Positions 19,714-29,466 of a DNA stretch of 38,938 nucleotides are shown piece by piece. This DNA is from Escherichia phage vB_EcoM-813R9. The DNA lies in the sequence record ON470620.1; one strand, written 5' to 3'. The notes beneath the pieces were generated by a model that worked only from the letters and a program-made list of their open reading frames with translations, searched no databases and was not told the DNA's origin. Position numbers and translations under genes: made by a program. How positions within the stretch are numbered: the stretch's first letter is position 1; the number at the start of each line of letters is the position of its first letter.

Positions 19714-20865
19714 TCAGCTTATTTGACCTAATAATTCTTCCGCATATTTTTTATCACTATCCATCCGTTGCTGAACAGCATCCCTAAGATGCTCTTTCAA
19801 CTTATCAGGATAATTTTTACATGCATCAATCAATTTTGTTCGTAAAAGCTTAGCACCATTTACAATGGTGGCATAAGCTAAAGCATCAGCTAACTCCTTA
19901 ACTTTCACATCATCAGTAATGATAGAAGGGATTGAAAAAACGTAATATTTCGCAACATAATTTTGCGTATACCAACTATCATATAACAATCCAATTAAAG
20001 CATCACCAAGATCACCTCTTCTTTTAAATTTGCTACCAAATGTATTACCCCATGTTCCTATAGCTCCTTTGGTCGCATCAGAATAGAAATCCAAATATCC
20101 TTTTTTGCACTCTTCGATGATTATATTTTCCATTCTAATTAAAACATCATCAGGAAGATTTCTCCATGCGCTCGGCTTAATTATTCTAAATACATTAGCA
20201 AACTCAACATTATTGCTAGCCTTGCGTAACTCATCACCTAGCAACCGCATTGCGGCTTTTTCTTCCTCTCCTGAAAAGCGTTGGTTTATTGCTTTGAATA
20301 TAGAATCAATTTCCTTGGTTGGCCTTTCATTAAAGCGAGAAATTAAACTTTGGAAAAAATCTAGTAGTTTTTTTTCTGGAATTTGTGATATTAAAGCTTC
20401 TGCATAATCAGAATTATTTACAAAGTGAACCTCATAAATTCTTTCAAGAATTGCTGTGTAATCGAACTCAGCAACATCTCTTTTTAAATACTTAATAAAA
20501 GTATCCAACATGATCAATATTCTCATGCAGGAATCTTCTGTATCAGGGAAATTGTCATGTGTCCTTGGATTTCTTATACACTGATAGTAGCCTCTTAATA
20601 GTGCTTCAAATCCGCGCTGTTCGTCCTGCTCTGATACAGATTGAAGACTATTAATTTGGATTCTAGGTGATTGTCCACCCAAAACAGTACCAACAAGCTG
20701 AGCCCCATCCCCTTCACATTGCCCTTTTTCACGCAGCAAAGTTGTTAGATATTTGGTTCCTGCAAGTATTGCATCCGAAAATTGGTTGTTTTCCAGCCTA
20801 TTACCAATCGCTTCAACTAATTCCGCATCGAAATTATTTGTATTAAAGTTATTTTTTACAAACAT
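19714..20865 (-). CDS. Accessory protein with N-terminal HEPN-like domain (TIGR02391/Hypoth_Ymh-type, Rx4H) and large uncharacterised C-terminal domain; candidate abortive-infection/defence effector
   Basis: 383 aa from the ATG after an aggggag RBS (ORF-track start is GTG at 20868); motif IRNPRTHD = R98-x4-H103 preceded by ..QRGFEALLRG..; AT-rich; occupies the Q-to-A accessory slot (old/tin position in P2). Confidence 0.6.
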   Translation of the reverse strand: MFVKNNFNTNNFDAELVEAIGNRLENNQFSDAILAGTKYLTTLLREKGQCEGDGAQLVGTVLGGQSPRIQINSLQSVSEQDEQRGFEALLRGYYQCIRNPRTHDNFPDTEDSCMRILIMLDTFIKYLKRDVAEFDYTAILERIYEVHFVNNSDYAEALISQIPEKKLLDFFQSLISRFNERPTKEIDSIFKAINQRFSGEEEKAAMRLLGDELRKASNNVEFANVFRIIKPSAWRNLPDDVLIRMENIIIEECKKGYLDFYSDATKGAIGTWGNTFGSKFKRRGDLGDALIGLLYDSWYTQNYVAKYYVFSIPSIITDDVKVKELADALAYATIVNGAKLLRTKLIDACKNYPDKLKEHLRDAVQQRMDSDKKYAEELLGQIS

Positions 20866-20950
20866 CACACTCCCCTTTTTTTGAAAGGGTATTGTATTGA
20901 ACCTTGTTAAGATTTCTCAGATAAGTATCACACTATCTCAAGTTGCGCGC

Positions 20951-20970: not shown

Positions 20971-21019
20971 TGCCCGCTTTATGTAGTGGTTTTCATGCAC
21001 CTGCATGATCTACGCAAAA

Positions 21020-21039
21020 GCCCGCCAGTTCTGGCGGGC
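21020..21039 (-). terminator. Rho-independent terminator ending the early (A) operon
   Basis: Inverted repeat gcccgccag..ctggcgggc followed on the minus strand by a U-run (ttttgcgta). Confidence 0.5.
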
Positions 21040-21174
21040 CTTAGCAAAAACGATCCTCAAACGATCATGCGATCTCATGCGGCATAGACATGCACTACAG
21101 AGCTAACGCCTCGCAAGGGCTCGTTGTTCAACCTTGCTGACGCCAGAAGCAAGTTCAGACGCCAGCAACGTTTC

Positions 21175-21408
21175 TTAATGCAGCCAGCTGTCGTCTTCCC
21201 ACACCTTCTGCATAATTTTCATCACTTGTTTTCTTTCTTCGTCCAGTTGCAGTCCGGTTAGTTCCACACCGTTAGAGCTACCTTTGCGAATGCGAATTAC
21301 CGTTTTGGGATACAGGGGGCGCAGATTGCGGTAAAGCTCGGATTCAAGGGCGTCCAGGGTAGACTGGCTAATCTTCTGCTCTTTATCGATCATTATTTCA
21401 ATGCGCAT
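21175..21408 (-). CDS. DinI-family protein (Tum/antirepressor-like SOS module component)
   Basis: MRIEIMIDKEQ...ELTGLQLDEERKQVMKIMQKVWEDDSWL resembles E. coli DinI over its whole length; RBS gaggtg. Confidence 0.7.
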   Translation of the reverse strand: MRIEIMIDKEQKISQSTLDALESELYRNLRPLYPKTVIRIRKGSSNGVELTGLQLDEERKQVMKIMQKVWEDDSWLH

Positions 21409-21418
21409 AAAAGTCACC

Positions 21419-21607
21419 TCAGCTGATGACATCCATTGAGCGGTTGTATTCGTGGGTTCTGATTTTTGCCATGAGTTCATCAGTCAATTCAGAAACCCAC
21501 TGCAGAGCCAGCCCCTTCTCTTCATCACTACACTCACTAGCCGCTACAAGCTTAAGAAAAAAATCAATGCGCTGGAGCTTCAAAGACTCCAAAAAATAGT
21601 CCTGCAT
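21419..21607 (-). CDS. Hypothetical small protein, first gene of the LexA-box-controlled operon
   Basis: 62-aa ORF from an ATG with a strong aggagga RBS, directly downstream of a LexA box. Confidence 0.5.
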   Translation of the reverse strand: MQDYFLESLKLQRIDFFLKLVAASECSDEEKGLALQWVSELTDELMAKIRTHEYNRSMDVIS

Positions 21608-21650
21608 CTTTCCTCCTATGACACCACACGCAATACTGTACGCATAACCA

Positions 21651-21666
21651 CTGTTTATATTTACAG
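21651..21666. promoter_or_regulatory. LexA box (SOS operator)
   Basis: Perfect CTGT-N8-ACAG with AT-rich spacer (ctgtttatatttacag) upstream of the orf62/DinI-like operon. Confidence 0.6.
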
Positions 21667-21760
21667 TATATAATAATCTTACTGATGTAAAACGTTTTTT
21701 TACGTTCATCAGCCTGATATGCCTGGTATTATAAAGAGCACGAATTGTTAACCCGCGTAA

Positions 21761-24172
21761 TTAATACAGGTTCCGCCACTGATCATCTTCTTGCAAACGC
21801 TGGTTCCGATAGAAGATACGCAGGCCTGCTCCTGACGGAATACTGCCTCCGCGAAGGAGTAAATCGACCTCTTTCTCGCTGCCATCAAATCCTCTGGACT
21901 TCAGCTCATACACGAGCTGCAGTCGCTGATGGTCTGTAATTCGCTGTTTGTAGTCTTTACGCCGTTTCGGTTTCACCAGGCGTAACCTTGCAGCCAGTTC
22001 CCGGCGCTCTTTTTTGTTCATACTGTGCAGGTAATCGTGCAACTCCTTGTCATCCATGCTGGTAATGTCCGTTCTGGGGTCCCCATCAGCTGATTTATCT
22101 TTCTCCTGTTGGTTCAAATTTTCAGCAAGGGGACAGTTATTGCCACGAGTCCAAGGGGCGCAAGCGCCCTGGGCTGCCGCCTCCTGAACGTCAACGGCTT
22201 TACGAACCATTTTCCACTTCACTGCATGAGTGCAGATCTTGCCCTCTGCAATGGGTGACCAGATGCCATAAATACGAATGCCGTGATCGCCATAGGCGGT
22301 CGGCTCTTCGTTGATTTCATAAGCGGTTCTGATGAGGTGATATTTACGGGGAACCAGTACGCCGCCCTGCTTCATGATGTAGGTGGCAAAACAACCAGCA
22401 TCAGCAGCAGCCAGAATGGCATCAAGACGCGGGTTATCCAGTACCGGCGCACCTGCTTTTTTGTCACCCTGTTGCCTTGCCGCCTGACCAGCCAGCAAGC
22501 GAAGTTCACGGTAAGCCTGACGCCCCGGAATACCAAAGAAGCGGAATTGCTGAACACGATGCAGAGACGCCCAGGCATTCACGTATTCAGCGTTATCACG
22601 CAGAGATTTACCCGTTTCCTTGCTGATCTCGCCAGCCAGACCACGACCGTCAATGTTCTTACTGATATATTTCGCGATGTAGCTTGTCGGCGTTCCTTTG
22701 CGCGGGTTAATCAACTCAGACTTAAAGCGCGGCCCAGTGTTATTGCCCAGCTCCTCGCGGTCTTCACGGATGGCAAACTTACGCAGTAATGCAGTGATGG
22801 CACGGCGGTCTTTTTTGCGCATGAAACACAACAGGTGCCAGTGAACTGTGCCATCATGATGCGGCTCAGCCACCCGCACGCCATACCAGCGCAACCCGGC
22901 TTTGTGCATCGCCTTACGAAATGCAGCAAACATGCCGACCAGATAATCGCTGCTTTGTCTTACCGTCGCGTTTGTCCAGGTCGGGTTTGGTCTGCCGTTA
23001 TTTAGCGTGGAATGGAAACGCGACGGACAGGTGATAGTGTAGAAAACGGCGCAGTCACCGCGCATTTCCGCGATAAGCTCCAGACCTTTAACACAGGCCA
23101 TCATCTCATTGCGGCGATGCGCAGGGTTGCTGCTGCTGGCGTTTACCACATCCTCCATGTCCAGCGTGTCGCCGTCTTCGTTCACCAGTTCATGAGAACG
23201 GAAAAACTCCAGCGACTTACGGCGCTGCTCACGTTTATGCATCACGGCTTCATAGCTGACATAAGGAGATGCTTTTTTGCTGACCAGGCAAACAGCGCGC
23301 AACTGCTCTTCCCGCCATTCGCAACGCATCTTCCATAATTTCCGATACCACCAGTCGGCGCACAACATACGCGCCAGCGAACCCGGAATGAGTTCATAGG
23401 GCACGGGTTTACGGCGGTTTCTTTTCCGACGGAGTTGCTCAAACGCAGGTGGGATGACATCCAGACGCAGGGTTTCCGCTGCCACCTTTTCCCATGTCTT
23501 GCGGATTTCTTCTGGCTTAACGTCATCGGTGGCATACAAATCACCACAAGCTGCATCAAGGCACATACTCATATGCGCAGCTACCAGGGTGGACAGGCGT
23601 TTCACCTGATCCTGACTCATTTCAGGCAGGATCAGCAGGCCGTCCAGCCCTTCATGGCTTGCCATAAAGCGAAAAGATGCAGATAGCTGACTGTCGCGTA
23701 CATGCTCCAGTCGTTCCAGACATGGCTTAATCGTCTCACGTAAATAGCGGGAATAAGCCTTTGGCCTGCCCAGGCTGCTGAAGTATTCAATACGTTGCAT
23801 CAGCGGCTTGCTGATATTGGAAGGCTGGGCGTTGACGTCCGCCAGAATGACCATGTCTGAATTAAAACGCTGCTGCTCATGCGCCAGCTTTGCCCGGCTA
23901 ATGAGCTTATCCTGCTCCATTTCGCGCTGGACAGGATCACGTGATTCATTAAAGAAATAACGCTCCCAGACCTGATCACTCAGTGCCTCGCGGCGCAACT
24001 GTTCCTGCTCGTTATCGGCAGCGTACAGAGTGATCAGGTTTGAAAGCGTAGAAACCGGCGCAACTTCCGCCGGGTCCAGATAAGGGTTAATGGCCTTTTT
24101 CGGGCTGTTCCATGAGAATGCTGCGGCAGCCTCGTTAAAGCCGCAGCACTTGTTCATATCGGCATGACTCAT
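21761..24172 (-). CDS. A: Rolling-circle replication initiation protein A
   Basis: 803-aa ORF with HUH motif (TVHWHLLCF) and catalytic tyrosine region ([14 protein letters not shown]); P2/186 gene A position. Confidence 0.9.
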
Positions 24173-25026
24173 GCACGTACTCCGTACACGGCAGAACTAT
24201 CCACGCCACGCGAATAATCAAATCCCATCCAGCAGCGCGGCCCGGAAACAGCAATGATTTCTGTTGCTGATTTACCCTCGCCAGCTGCCACACCGATGCT
24301 GCGTTTTACCTTGATATAGTGGTGAGTAAAATTGCGATACAGCGAACGGATCAGGGATGTGTCACTGTTAGAAACAATGACCGGATGTCCTTCTGATGAC
24401 CGATGTTCAAGAACGGATGCCAGGTGATACTGGTCATCTTCAGTGAAACCATCAGTGTGATAGCCGGAAAACGTACCGTCATATGGCGGATCGCAATACA
24501 CCACATCTCCCGCCTTCAACATCGCCAGCGTTTCATCAAAGCTGGCGCAGATAAACGTTGCTCGCTGGGCTTTTTCTGCAAATGTGCGAAGTTCTTTTTC
24601 AGGGAAATACGGATTTTTATAATTACCGTAGGGAATGTTGAAATGCCCGCTCTTGTTATAGCGACATAAACCACGGTAACCGTGACGATTGAGATACAGG
24701 AAATATACCGCTTTCATGAAATCAGTAATTTCAGTTGAGCAGTTAAACTCCTGCCTTATGTTGTAATAAGCCACCTCCCTGTTTGCGATCTCAAATAAAA
24801 CTCTGGCGCGAGATATAAACGATTCACAATCAGCGGCAACCTTTTTATAGAGGTTGATTAAATCAGGATTAATATCCGCAACCAGATAGCTGGGATAATC
24901 CGTTTCCATCATCACAGCACAGGAACCCGCGAAAGGTTCAACCAGTCGCGGGCCAGCAGGAAGGTATTTTTTCAGTTCTGGCATAATGGCGGTTTTATTT
25001 CCCGCCCATTTCAGGATAGTGCTCAT
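24169..25026 (-). CDS. DNA adenine methyltransferase (Dam-like)
   Basis: [11 protein letters not shown].. N-terminus, AdoMet motif EPFAGS, catalytic DPPY; stop overlaps gene A start. Confidence 0.85.
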
Positions 25027-25250
25027 ACAGCACCTCCGTTGTAATGTTTGCCTTTCAGTTCTGCGATTTCCTGACAGGTAATGCAAAGCTGCACTCCCGG
25101 AATGGCGCGGCGTCGTGCTGGCGGAATTGGCGCTTCACATTCAATGCAAAGTACGCGTGACACGCCCGGTGATTTGGCACGGGCTGCACGGATATGGCGC
25201 TGGCGTTCTTCTTCAACGCGCTGCTGTACGAGATCCATTGCATCAGCCAT
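25023..25250 (-). CDS. TraR/DksA-family C4 zinc-finger protein
   Basis: 75 aa with CIECEA...CITCQ four-Cys finger typical of phage TraR-like proteins. Confidence 0.75.
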   Translation of the reverse strand: MADAMDLVQQRVEEERQRHIRAARAKSPGVSRVLCIECEAPIPPARRRAIPGVQLCITCQEIAELKGKHYNGGAV

Positions 25251-27172: not shown

Positions 27173-27769
27173 ATGTCAACATCAAAGTACCCAAGTGAGA
27201 TCAAAATAAATCCCAATAAAGGTGGTAAGGCTGCGATTGAGCGATTAGTCGAAGCCTATGGCTTTACGACACGACAGGCTTTAGCTGATCACTTGGAAGT
27301 ATCAAAAAGCACACTAGCGAACAGGTATTTGCGGGATACATTTCCTGCTGACTGGATAATCCAATGTGCTCTTGAAACAGGAACCTCCCTCAAATGGTTA
27401 ACTACCGGACAAGGCCTTAAGCAAAGCTCGCTGACAGCAGCTACAGAAGAGCTTGTTAAGTTTCGCCTTGCCGCAGGCAAAATGATTGAAGACGGTTCAT
27501 ATGTCTTCGATTCATCATTTCTTCCTGCAAACCTTTCATCACCAATTGTTGTTCAGGATGGACTCGTCACATACATTTGTGATCAAAAATTTTCTGAAGT
27601 ACTTGATGGAAACTGGTTAATCAATATCGACGGAACCTATTCCATTCGAAAAATCACAAGGCTTCCTAAAGGAATGATTAAAATTACAACAGCAGAGAAT
27701 AGCTTTGAATGTGCATTTTCTGATATTGAAGTGGTTGCTTGTATAAGAAGTACAATAGTCTCGAATTAA
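27173..27769 (+). CDS. cI: CI immunity repressor (phage 186 type)
   Basis: 198-aa ORF with shared motifs ..AYGF.., ..LANRY.., ..CALETG..L.WL.TG.G; transcribed toward int. Confidence 0.8.
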   Translation: MSTSKYPSEIKINPNKGGKAAIERLVEAYGFTTRQALADHLEVSKSTLANRYLRDTFPADWIIQCALETGTSLKWLTTGQGLKQSSLTAATEELVKFRLAAGKMIEDGSYVFDSSFLPANLSSPIVVQDGLVTYICDQKFSEVLDGNWLINIDGTYSIRKITRLPKGMIKITTAENSFECAFSDIEVVACIRSTIVSN

Positions 27770-27789: not shown

Positions 27790-29466
27790 ATGAATTCATT
27801 TGCCATCGTTATACTCTTATTAGCATTTCTCGCCCCTGTTCTAGCTGTAATATTATTTAAACAAAGTAAAAAACACAAAGCGGCTATAGATAACCTGACA
27901 GCTAACAACATAGCCCTTTCTAACCAACTGATTGAAAATCAAGAAAAACTAGCACAGACCGTACGAGAATTATCAGAGCTTGAAGGGCGAGCAGCACCAT
28001 TGTGGCAATACGAAGAATTGCACAGCGCAGTAATGGATGCAGAGAATAAGATAAAAAATGCGGACTCAATAGCCAAGCAAAAAATAGATGAAGCCCAAAT
28101 TAAGGCGGCTAAAACAGTAAACGAAGCAAATTATCAAGCTCAGATGACAATAAGCAACGCTAATAGCGAAGCTATAGCAATCACCAAAGACGCTCGCGAT
28201 GCACGCCTGAAAGCCAAAGAACGTCTTGATAATGCTAATAATAAAGCAAATGAGCTAATCTCAAATGCTAATGACAATGCAGTAAAAATTATTTCTGATG
28301 CAGAAGAAAGAGCAAAGGAGATTGCTGGTTCAGCATATGAAGCTAAAGAGTTTGCAGAAAAATATGAAGCAGTTGCAAAATCAATGAAAAATAAAATTGA
28401 AGGTTATGGTGATGAATGGATCATCCCTAACCGTAGTGTACTTGATGAGCTGGCAGAAAATTATGAATTTACAGATGCAGGCAAGGAATTACAAAAAGCC
28501 AGAGAGTTAACCAAATCATTAATAAAAACTAATAAAGCTGCTTCGTGTGATTATGTTGAGCAAAACAGGCGTAATACTGCCATAAACTTTGTTTTGGATG
28601 CCTTCAATGGAAGAGTTGACAGTATTTTATCAAAAGTCAAACACAACAATTTTGGAAAACTTTCCCAAGAAATAAAAGATGCATTTCAACTAGTAAATTA
28701 CAATGGCTCTGCCTTTAGGTCCGCAAAAATAAGTGACATCTATCTTCAGGCAAGACTCAACGAGCTAAAATGGGGTGTAGCAGTTAATGAAATTATGCTC
28801 GAAGAAAAAGAAGAGCAAAGAAGGATTAAAGAACAGCTTCGTGAAGAGGAAAGAGCTCGTAGAGAATATGAAAAAGCGATAAAAGAAGCTGAAAAAGAAG
28901 AAAAAGCTATTCAGCAAGCTATAAATAAAGCAACGAAAGAACTTATGCTTGCAAATGAAGAACAACGCTTAGCTTTAGAGCAAAAAATAGCTGAACTACA
29001 GTTAAAATATGAAGAAGCTGAAGCTAAAAATCAACGAGCTATTTCTATGGCTCAACAAACCAGATCAGGCCACGTCTATATCATTAGTAATATTGGTTCA
29101 TTTGGCGAAGATGTATATAAAATTGGAATGACACGCCGCCTTGAACCACTTGATCGTGTTCGTGAACTCGGAGATGCTAGTGTTCCTTTTTCGTTCGATG
29201 TTCATGCGATGATTTATAGTGATGATGCACCATCATTAGAAAACCATCTGCATAAAGTTTTCAACGAAAAGCAGGTCAATAAAATTAACTCACGAAAAGA
29301 GTTTTTTAACGTAAATTTAAAAGAAATCAAATCAGTTATTGAAGACATGAACATCAACGCCCACTGGACAATGTTTGCAGAGGCGAAAGAATATAGAGAG
29401 TCTCTATCTATTGAGCAGGAGCGCAAAGCAGCCACTTCCGCCAACGATGAACTACATGTTGCTTAG
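27790..29466 (+). CDS. Membrane-anchored coiled-coil protein with C-terminal GIY-YIG-like (T5orf172/MUG113-type) domain; candidate defence/superinfection-exclusion cargo
   Basis: 558 aa; N-terminal TM helix FAIVILLLAFLAPVLAVILF; long Ala/Lys/Glu-rich coiled-coil; C-terminal GHVYIISN..VYKIGMTRR..PFSF..ENHLH..REFF; AT-rich; RBS aaagga right after the cI stop. Confidence 0.65.
   Translation: MNSFAIVILLLAFLAPVLAVILFKQSKKHKAAIDNLTANNIALSNQLIENQEKLAQTVRELSELEGRAAPLWQYEELHSAVMDAENKIKNADSIAKQKIDEAQIKAAKTVNEANYQAQMTISNANSEAIAITKDARDARLKAKERLDNANNKANELISNANDNAVKIISDAEERAKEIAGSAYEAKEFAEKYEAVAKSMKNKIEGYGDEWIIPNRSVLDELAENYEFTDAGKELQKARELTKSLIKTNKAASCDYVEQNRRNTAINFVLDAFNGRVDSILSKVKHNNFGKLSQEIKDAFQLVNYNGSAFRSAKISDIYLQARLNELKWGVAVNEIMLEEKEEQRRIKEQLREEERARREYEKAIKEAEKEEKAIQQAINKATKELMLANEEQRLALEQKIAELQLKYEEAEAKNQRAISMAQQTRSGHVYIISNIGSFGEDVYKIGMTRRLEPLDRVRELGDASVPFSFDVHAMIYSDDAPSLENHLHKVFNEKQVNKINSRKEFFNVNLKEIKSVIEDMNINAHWTMFAEAKEYRESLSIEQERKAATSANDELHVA

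Follow-up and report, generated by a model that had tools for sequence, protein, structure and literature searches.

This locus raises the question of how DNA damage could induce a P2-like prophage whose CI repressor appears unable to cleave itself, and of how a nearly invariant antirepressor, TumA, copes with very different CI alleles. The window, by which we mean the whole 38,938-nucleotide stretch analysed here (Escherichia phage vB_EcoM-813R9, record ON470620.1), is a segment of the E. coli chromosome with a complete P2-like (Peduoviridae) prophage; the genes of its right flank (ybjH, ybjI, ybjJ, rcdA and mdfA) were found in 5423 of 5426 complete E. coli genomes. We found that the CI of the window consists of PF07022 and PF16452 only, with no peptidase S24 domain, and matches the 186 CI structures PDB 2fjr (E 6.7e-27) and 2fkd. 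The lack of an S24 domain excludes a self-cleaving repressor of the lambda type, and an antirepressor route is therefore to be expected. We consider it very probable that this route is provided by the module at 21691..21175 on the minus strand, as the SOS-induction operon tumA-tumB of a Fels-2/186-type P2-like prophage in which TumA would be the antirepressor trigger. The features on which the argument draws are as follows.

21668..21649, minus strand: LexA (SOS) box TACTGTAAATATAAACAGTG, identified by its match to the consensus, its uniqueness in the window and its conservation upstream of homologues.
21691..21686, minus strand: putative -35 hexamer TTTACA of a p95-like promoter, by analogy with the annotated p95 of 186.
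21668..21663, minus strand: putative -10 hexamer TACTGT, lying within the LexA box, by analogy with 186 p95.
21607..21419 (stop included), minus strand: tumA, a predicted 62-aa antirepressor gene equivalent to the N-terminal half of 186 Tum, from phrog_698 and hhalign against Tum.
21408..21175 (stop included), minus strand: tumB, encoding a 77-aa DinI-family protein equivalent to the C-terminal half of 186 Tum, from PF06183, phrog_189 and alignment with Tum.
21042..21012 (hairpin 21042..21017), minus strand: rho-independent terminator closing the operon, GGCCCGCCAG-AACU-CUGGCGGGCUUUUG.
24172..21761, minus strand: replication gene A (PF05840, E 5.9e-128), with the module directly downstream on the same strand.
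27173..27769, plus strand: cI, the 186-type immunity repressor (PF07022 and PF16452) and presumed target of TumA.

The tumA gene begins with an ATG at 21607, preceded by an AGGAGG ribosome-binding site at 21617..21612, and ends with a TGA at 21421..21419. A mechanical ORF list gives it as 96 aa (21419..21709, minus strand), from an upstream ATG that reads through the LexA box; however, family members all begin at the MQD/MxD position, and the 62-aa reading is therefore correct. Public records mostly name this gene 'hypothetical' or mis-extend it to 96 aa, and a few label it 'levan regulatory protein'. TumA belongs to phrog_698 (E 3.6e-38), and no family for it was found in Pfam, NCBIfam or PADLOC. 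Its homologues numbered 484 at E <= 0.01, and an HMMER scan of 1.84 billion representative proteins returned 66 relatives with the conserved motif (cluster representatives, E <= 0.001). Nearly all of these 66 were short, stand-alone proteins, with no fusion of the TumA subfamily to DinI among them; the handful of longer matches involved the C-terminal end only or repetitive and low-complexity sequences. An alignment of 27 diverse members gave the motif xDhhxEshxLQRIxLhxRLVAxxxCxxxDKELALxWhxELTxEL. The AlphaFold model is a two-helix hairpin (helices 2-23 and 28-61, pLDDT 85.8), for which Foldseek against the PDB recovered only generic helical hairpins, all with E > 1, and we found no solved structure related to TumA by sequence.

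We then considered the relationship of TumA to the Tum antirepressor of coliphage 186. BLASTP gave no alignment of TumA with 186 Tum, of TumA with PSP3 TumA, or of PSP3 TumA with Tum. A profile of the 27-sequence TumA family matched residues 3-45 of 186 Tum with an hhalign probability of 94.9% (E 4.7e-8), and the motif ...RhxhhxRLxAxxxCxxxD+ELALxhhxEh... is common to the family and to Tum. The same profile matched PSP3 TumA weakly (E 0.005, probability 7%), in register on the Cys...LAL motif. The similarity of TumA to Tum was thus seen in a single profile comparison and is invisible to BLASTP, and it suggests common descent of TumA and the N-terminal part of Tum.

Genetic evidence comes from a near-identical module. 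An in-frame Δtum was made in the P2-like prophage of E. coli HS, and Δtum and lexA(Ind-) each abolished mitomycin C-induced lysis and virion formation (Phollow preprint, PMC11195241). The primers used for this deletion, GTGGTGTCATAGGAGGAAAGATG and TGAGGTGACTTTTATGCGCATTG, have perfect matches in the window at 21605..21627 and 21399..21421, where the 62-aa ORF starts and stops; the DinI-like gene was left intact. The need for tumA and for cleavable LexA has thus been shown by others for the HS module, which is 98% identical. For Fels-2 the genetic support is indirect: the title of Bunny et al. 2002, as cited in PMC3121763, ascribes lexA-null lethality to the prophage. SOS-induction genetics therefore bears on two TumA/CI pairs, directly in HS and indirectly in Fels-2. 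Since the window CI differs from both of these alleles, we infer the inducibility of the window prophage by analogy with them, and the action of TumA on its CI is an extrapolation.

To see how far this extrapolation reaches, we compared the module with the repressors that accompany it. TumA is 97-100% and TumB 100% identical in the window, HS, Fels-2 and KP12, and the three CI alleles of these phages are 41-52% identical mutually. The window CI is 96.5% identical to that of KP12, 51.5% to HS, 41-44% to Fels-2 (by alignment), 34% to PSP3 and 31% to 186. Among 5426 complete E. coli genomes the module occurs in 1125 (~21%), and the window cI allele in 171. As judged from these distributions, the tumAB module and cI clearly reassort, which means either that TumA would be broadly active on a conserved CI surface or that some pairings would be mismatched. 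The latter possibility leads to the best surviving alternative, namely that the module is LexA-controlled but has been mismatched with the window CI by recombination, so that SOS would express TumA and TumB in a prophage that is non-inducible or induced only in trans. The reassortment itself speaks for such a mismatch, as does the finding that TumA remains 97-100% identical across phages with CIs only 39-52% identical to the window CI. However, the genetic support for near-identical TumA with two CI alleles (HS direct, Fels-2 indirect through the cited title) argues for tolerance of CI divergence. Furthermore, the pair of window cI and tumA recurs in KP12, a Klebsiella phage whose sequence was submitted as that of a phage, from sewage, and the allele itself is present in the 171 E. 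coli genomes. We consequently regard a mismatch as improbable.

We favour the matched reading, in which TumA acts on the CI of its own prophage, and the CI sequences offer a lead as to how this may occur. In a comparison of 13 phages, the identity of the CI N-terminal domain tracked that of TumA, and that of the C-terminal domain did not. The N-terminal domain was 68-79% identical where TumA was 84-100% identical, with the C-terminal domain at 31-38% in the same phages (KP12 aside). Where TumA was 41-49% identical the N-terminal domain was at 52-61%, and it was at 44-45% for 186 and PSP3. The C-terminal domain stayed at 20-38% throughout, with the exception of KP12, which shares the window CI allele (N-terminal domain 100%, C-terminal domain 95%). 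Shared ancestry confounds this trend, which we take as no more than a lead. It is conceivable, although we would put it somewhat short of an even chance, that TumA is a broad-spectrum antirepressor recognising a surface that 186-type CI proteins have conserved, for which the conserved FPA(D/E)W(I/V)IQC.LETG stretch may be a candidate. Such a surface would more likely lie in the N-terminal DNA-binding domain because of its 68-79% identity, compared with 31-38% for the C-terminal domain. If TumA were broad-spectrum, one SOS-induced prophage could bring about the induction of P2-like prophages with other CI types in the same cell, as in the Gifsy system.

The second gene of the module was examined in the same way. 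TumB matched all 63 profile positions of Pfam PF06183 (E 6.6e-23), scoring 81.3 bits where the gathering cut-off is 24.2, and positions 71-148 of 151 of phrog_189. It shares 41% identity with 186 Tum over Tum residues 71-145 (E 3e-24), 78% with PSP3 TumB, and 100% with the Fels-2, HS and KP12 proteins. DinI structures in the PDB (1ghh/7ywa) were matched with an E value of 2.7e-6. Against the chromosomal DinI equivalog model NCBIfam NF007893, TumB scored 42.7 bits, below the 111-bit cut-off, indicating that it is a phage DinI-like paralogue and not an orthologue of host DinI. By family alignments the true start of tumB is at 21408; ORF calls and many database entries lengthen the gene to 101-105 aa (21175..21480, minus strand), overlapping tumA. 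The two genes are separated by 10 nt, and the GAGGTG Shine-Dalgarno sequence of tumB overlaps the stop codon of tumA; a terminator-like hairpin over this junction, which might couple the translation of the two genes, was no better than shuffles (z = -1.1). Public records name the second gene of the module only 'DinI-like', and a literature search under the names TumA and TumB returned unrelated papers only. These results bear out the first-pass annotation, which had described a two-gene operon on the minus strand consisting of a 62-aa ORF with a strong ribosome-binding site followed by a DinI-family ORF, and had proposed that a Tum-type module is split here into two ORFs. The positions of both ORFs and the AGGAGG were recovered, PF06183 identified the second product, and comparison with 186 tum placed TumB on the DinI-like C-terminal part. 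The match of the TumA profile to Tum 3-45 supplied the N-terminal part, and the description of a split Tum is thus correct.

We next weighed the possibility that induction is driven by the DinI-like protein through RecA, or by a CI that cleaves itself in the manner of lambda, with the 62-aa ORF being incidental. DinI-family proteins do bind RecA filaments, as is known for relatives of PDB 1ghh/7ywa, and in 186 both parts of Tum reside in a single polypeptide. However, the CI has no S24 peptidase domain, and the HS deletion removes only the 62-aa ORF and still abolishes induction with the DinI gene intact (PMC11195241). In addition, deletions of dinI had no detected effect on Gifsy induction (PMC3121763), and several lineages combine a LexA box and TumA without a DinI gene. 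In three distant lineages TumA was found with a LexA box in this way, and TumA is thus the constant partner of gene A. In the distant P2-like loci L007-L012 (homologues P0147, P0172 and P0168), which have no DinI gene, the TumA homologue lies behind gene A and a LexA box, and the next genes are a convergent Ogr/Delta gene and the portal gene. The loci L007-L012 suggest that the DinI half is dispensable for the basic design of the module, and the three DinI-less lineages together with the HS Δtum mark TumA as the essential trigger and TumB as accessory. Induction through the DinI-like protein or through CI cleavage is thus very unlikely.

The LexA box was analysed in relation to both chance and conservation. 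The 16-mer CTGTTTATATTTACAG on the plus strand (21651..21666) is the sole CTGT-N8-ACAG in the 38.9-kb window. Such a core is expected 0.44 times per window and at least one was present in 37 of 100 shuffles, so that the core alone proves nothing. The 20-mer at 21649..21668 agrees with the LexA consensus TACTGTATATATATACAGTA at 17 of 20 positions, a score reached by none of 100 shuffles. Furthermore, each of 13 related loci, representing ~8 distinct sequence lineages, has a TACTG-N10-CAG box 33-59 nt 5' of the start codon; the comparison took in 186, PSP3, Fels-2, phage 500465-1 and eight loci of metagenomic or genomic origin reached through distant protein homologues. The sequence around the box is otherwise dissimilar between lineages, 186 and PSP3 included. 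This positional conservation is a stronger argument against chance than the match to the consensus. One could still suggest that an AT-rich sequence has produced the palindrome by chance and that the short ORF is not a gene, appealing to the expected frequency of the 16-mer and to the lack of a family for the 62-aa protein in Pfam, NCBIfam and PADLOC. This suggestion has next to no probability and is already refuted by the conservation of the box over ~8 lineages, with the 20-mer score, the 484 homologues and 66 cluster representatives of the ORF and its confident two-helix model pointing the same way.

In the window the box lies 59 nt before the tumA ATG; Fels-2, phage 500465-1 and E. coli HS have the identical box. 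The leader from box to start codon is 59 nt in the Fels-2-type lineage and 33-39 nt in the other lineages; the extra 20-25 nt of the Fels-2-type leader (21608..21648, minus strand) contain GTACAGTA, a sequence similar to a single LexA half-site. According to the annotation of 186, the LexA site begins with the six bases that form the -10 signal of p95, and the arrangement in the window is the same. The hexamers TTTACA and TACTGT are spaced by 17 nt, compared with TTGCCA, 18 nt and TACTGT in the annotated 186 p95, and the spacer between the end of gene A and the putative promoter is AT-rich. A generic promoter scan of the window called no promoter at the module, because TACTGT matches TATAAT at only 3 of 6 positions; the promoter is assigned by analogy with 186 p95 and is thus putative. 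Both the LexA box that the first-pass annotation had placed before the operon and its comparison with the Tum setting were confirmed: the box is the only one of its kind in the window, the CI is of the 186 type, and the position after gene A and the overlap of the box with the putative -10 mirror 186 p95.

Collectively, these data point to the following mechanism. In an undamaged lysogen, LexA would occupy the box at 21649..21668 and keep the tumA-tumB operon silent. Upon DNA damage RecA would become active, LexA would cleave itself and the operon would be transcribed. TumA would then bind the 186-type CI, predicted to be unable to self-cleave, and stop it from holding the lytic promoter, so that the early lytic operon (the Apl/Cox-like gene, CII and replication gene A) would be turned on. 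The same mRNA would also yield TumB, its translation probably being coupled to that of tumA, and TumB would most likely modulate RecA filaments and the SOS response and not CI.

The operon is closed by the terminator downstream of tumB. A 61-nt stretch containing it folds at -27.6 kcal/mol (z = -4.14), which was matched by none of 200 shuffles; a hairpin after gene A is weak (z = -1.4), similar to that at the tumA/tumB junction. Gene A is also directly followed by the module in 186, PSP3, Fels-2, HS and the distant loci L009-L014. Upstream, a Dam-type N6-adenine methyltransferase gene (24169..25086, minus strand; PF02086, E 3e-75) adjoins and overlaps gene A, and is placed likewise in Fels-2 and HS. 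The interval between tumB and the terminator is ~83 bp in the window (21094..21176), and likewise in phage 500465-1 and Kp4845-2-type Klebsiella phages. The same interval holds an extra gene of 225-243 aa in Fels-2 (L001 3624..4466), KP12 and E. coli HS. The ~83-bp stretch includes a hairpin (~21130..21172) that is GC-rich and lacks a U-tract, the 81-nt stretch tested giving z = -1.9.

Two low-GC genes lie nearby. A 384-aa gene (19714..20868, minus strand; 33-38% GC) is located between the tumB terminator and the portal gene. Its N-terminal Hypoth_Ymh/TIGR02391 domain gave weak PADLOC matches (PD-Lambda-3_B, E 2e-14; Aga_HEPN), and the gene probably has a defence or cargo function and a promoter of its own. 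The same slot holds cargo in other P2-like phages, including a TIR-domain gene in 500465-1 and GAPS4-like genes in L013. A 558-aa gene (27790..29466, plus strand; 35-37% GC) is inserted between cI and int; it matched the PADLOC anti-phage system PD-Lambda-1 (E 3e-120) and contains DUF4041 and T5orf172/MUG113 domains. Klebsiella phage KP12 carries this gene at the corresponding position, under the annotation 'chromosome segregation ATPase'.

The module is already known and common, the split tumA/tumB pair having been annotated in PSP3 and genetically tested in E. coli HS, and a LexA-controlled antirepressor is the textbook alternative to lambda-style repressor cleavage, so that the discovery value is small. 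Its value lies in annotation: the tumA/tumB pair marks P2-like prophages as SOS-inducible, and a prophage that is SOS-inducible is therefore inducible by genotoxic antibiotics.

Compared with known systems, the window shares with coliphage 186 a LexA-repressed promoter right after gene A and an antirepressor acting on 186-type CI; in 186, Tum inactivates CI by blocking operator binding (cited in PMC3121763 and PMC7708051). The 146-aa Tum has an N-terminal region homologous to TumA and a C-terminal region homologous to TumB, but it combines them in one polypeptide with internal starts, followed by orf97, whereas the window has two ORFs. No homologue of orf97, the third gene of the 186 SOS operon, was found in the window, and the STM2726 gene of Fels-2 showed no BLASTP similarity to it. 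Like the window, PSP3 has two genes with a LexA box after gene A, and their annotation equates them with the 5' and 3' parts of 186 tum; its record describes tumA as 'similar to 5' end 186 tum; UV induction of prophage' and annotates tumB too. PSP3 differs in its TumA, which has no BLASTP similarity to that of the window, and in its CI (34% identical). Lemire et al. 2011 (PMC3121763) described tum as split by a stop codon in Fels-2 and PSP3, for Fels-2 citing Bunny et al. 2002, and stated that in PSP3 the antirepressor activity is carried by the upstream gene.

The closest relatives are Fels-2 and the HS prophage. In the Salmonella phage Fels-2 (Felsduovirus), STM2728 is 98.4% identical to TumA and STM2726.1 is 100% identical to TumB, behind the same LexA box. 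Between the end of gene A and the tumB stop, a stretch that takes in the promoter, the window shares 96.6% DNA identity with Fels-2 and 98.7% with Escherichia phage 500465-1. Fels-2 differs in its Salmonella host, in its CI (41-44% identical) and in the 843 bp, containing gene STM2726, between tumB and the terminator, compared with 83 bp in the window. The HS prophage is likewise P2-like and, as in the window, integrated at rcdA | ybjL. Its 'tum' is ECHS_RS04495 (98.4% identical to TumA) with the adjacent DinI-like gene ECHS_RS04500 (100% identical to TumB), its LexA box and putative promoter hexamers are identical, and its gene A protein and Int are 98.8% and 96.6% identical. It differs in its CI (51.5% overall; N-terminal domain 76%, C-terminal domain 43%), in an extra gene after the DinI-like gene and in other cargo genes. 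The dinI-gfoA/gftA operons of Gifsy-1/2/3 also combine a DinI homologue with a small antirepressor under a LexA box, and their repressor is not cleaved (PMC3121763). These prophages are lambdoid, reside in Salmonella and place dinI first, so that the gene order is reversed, and their antirepressors act in trans on several repressors (PMC3121763).
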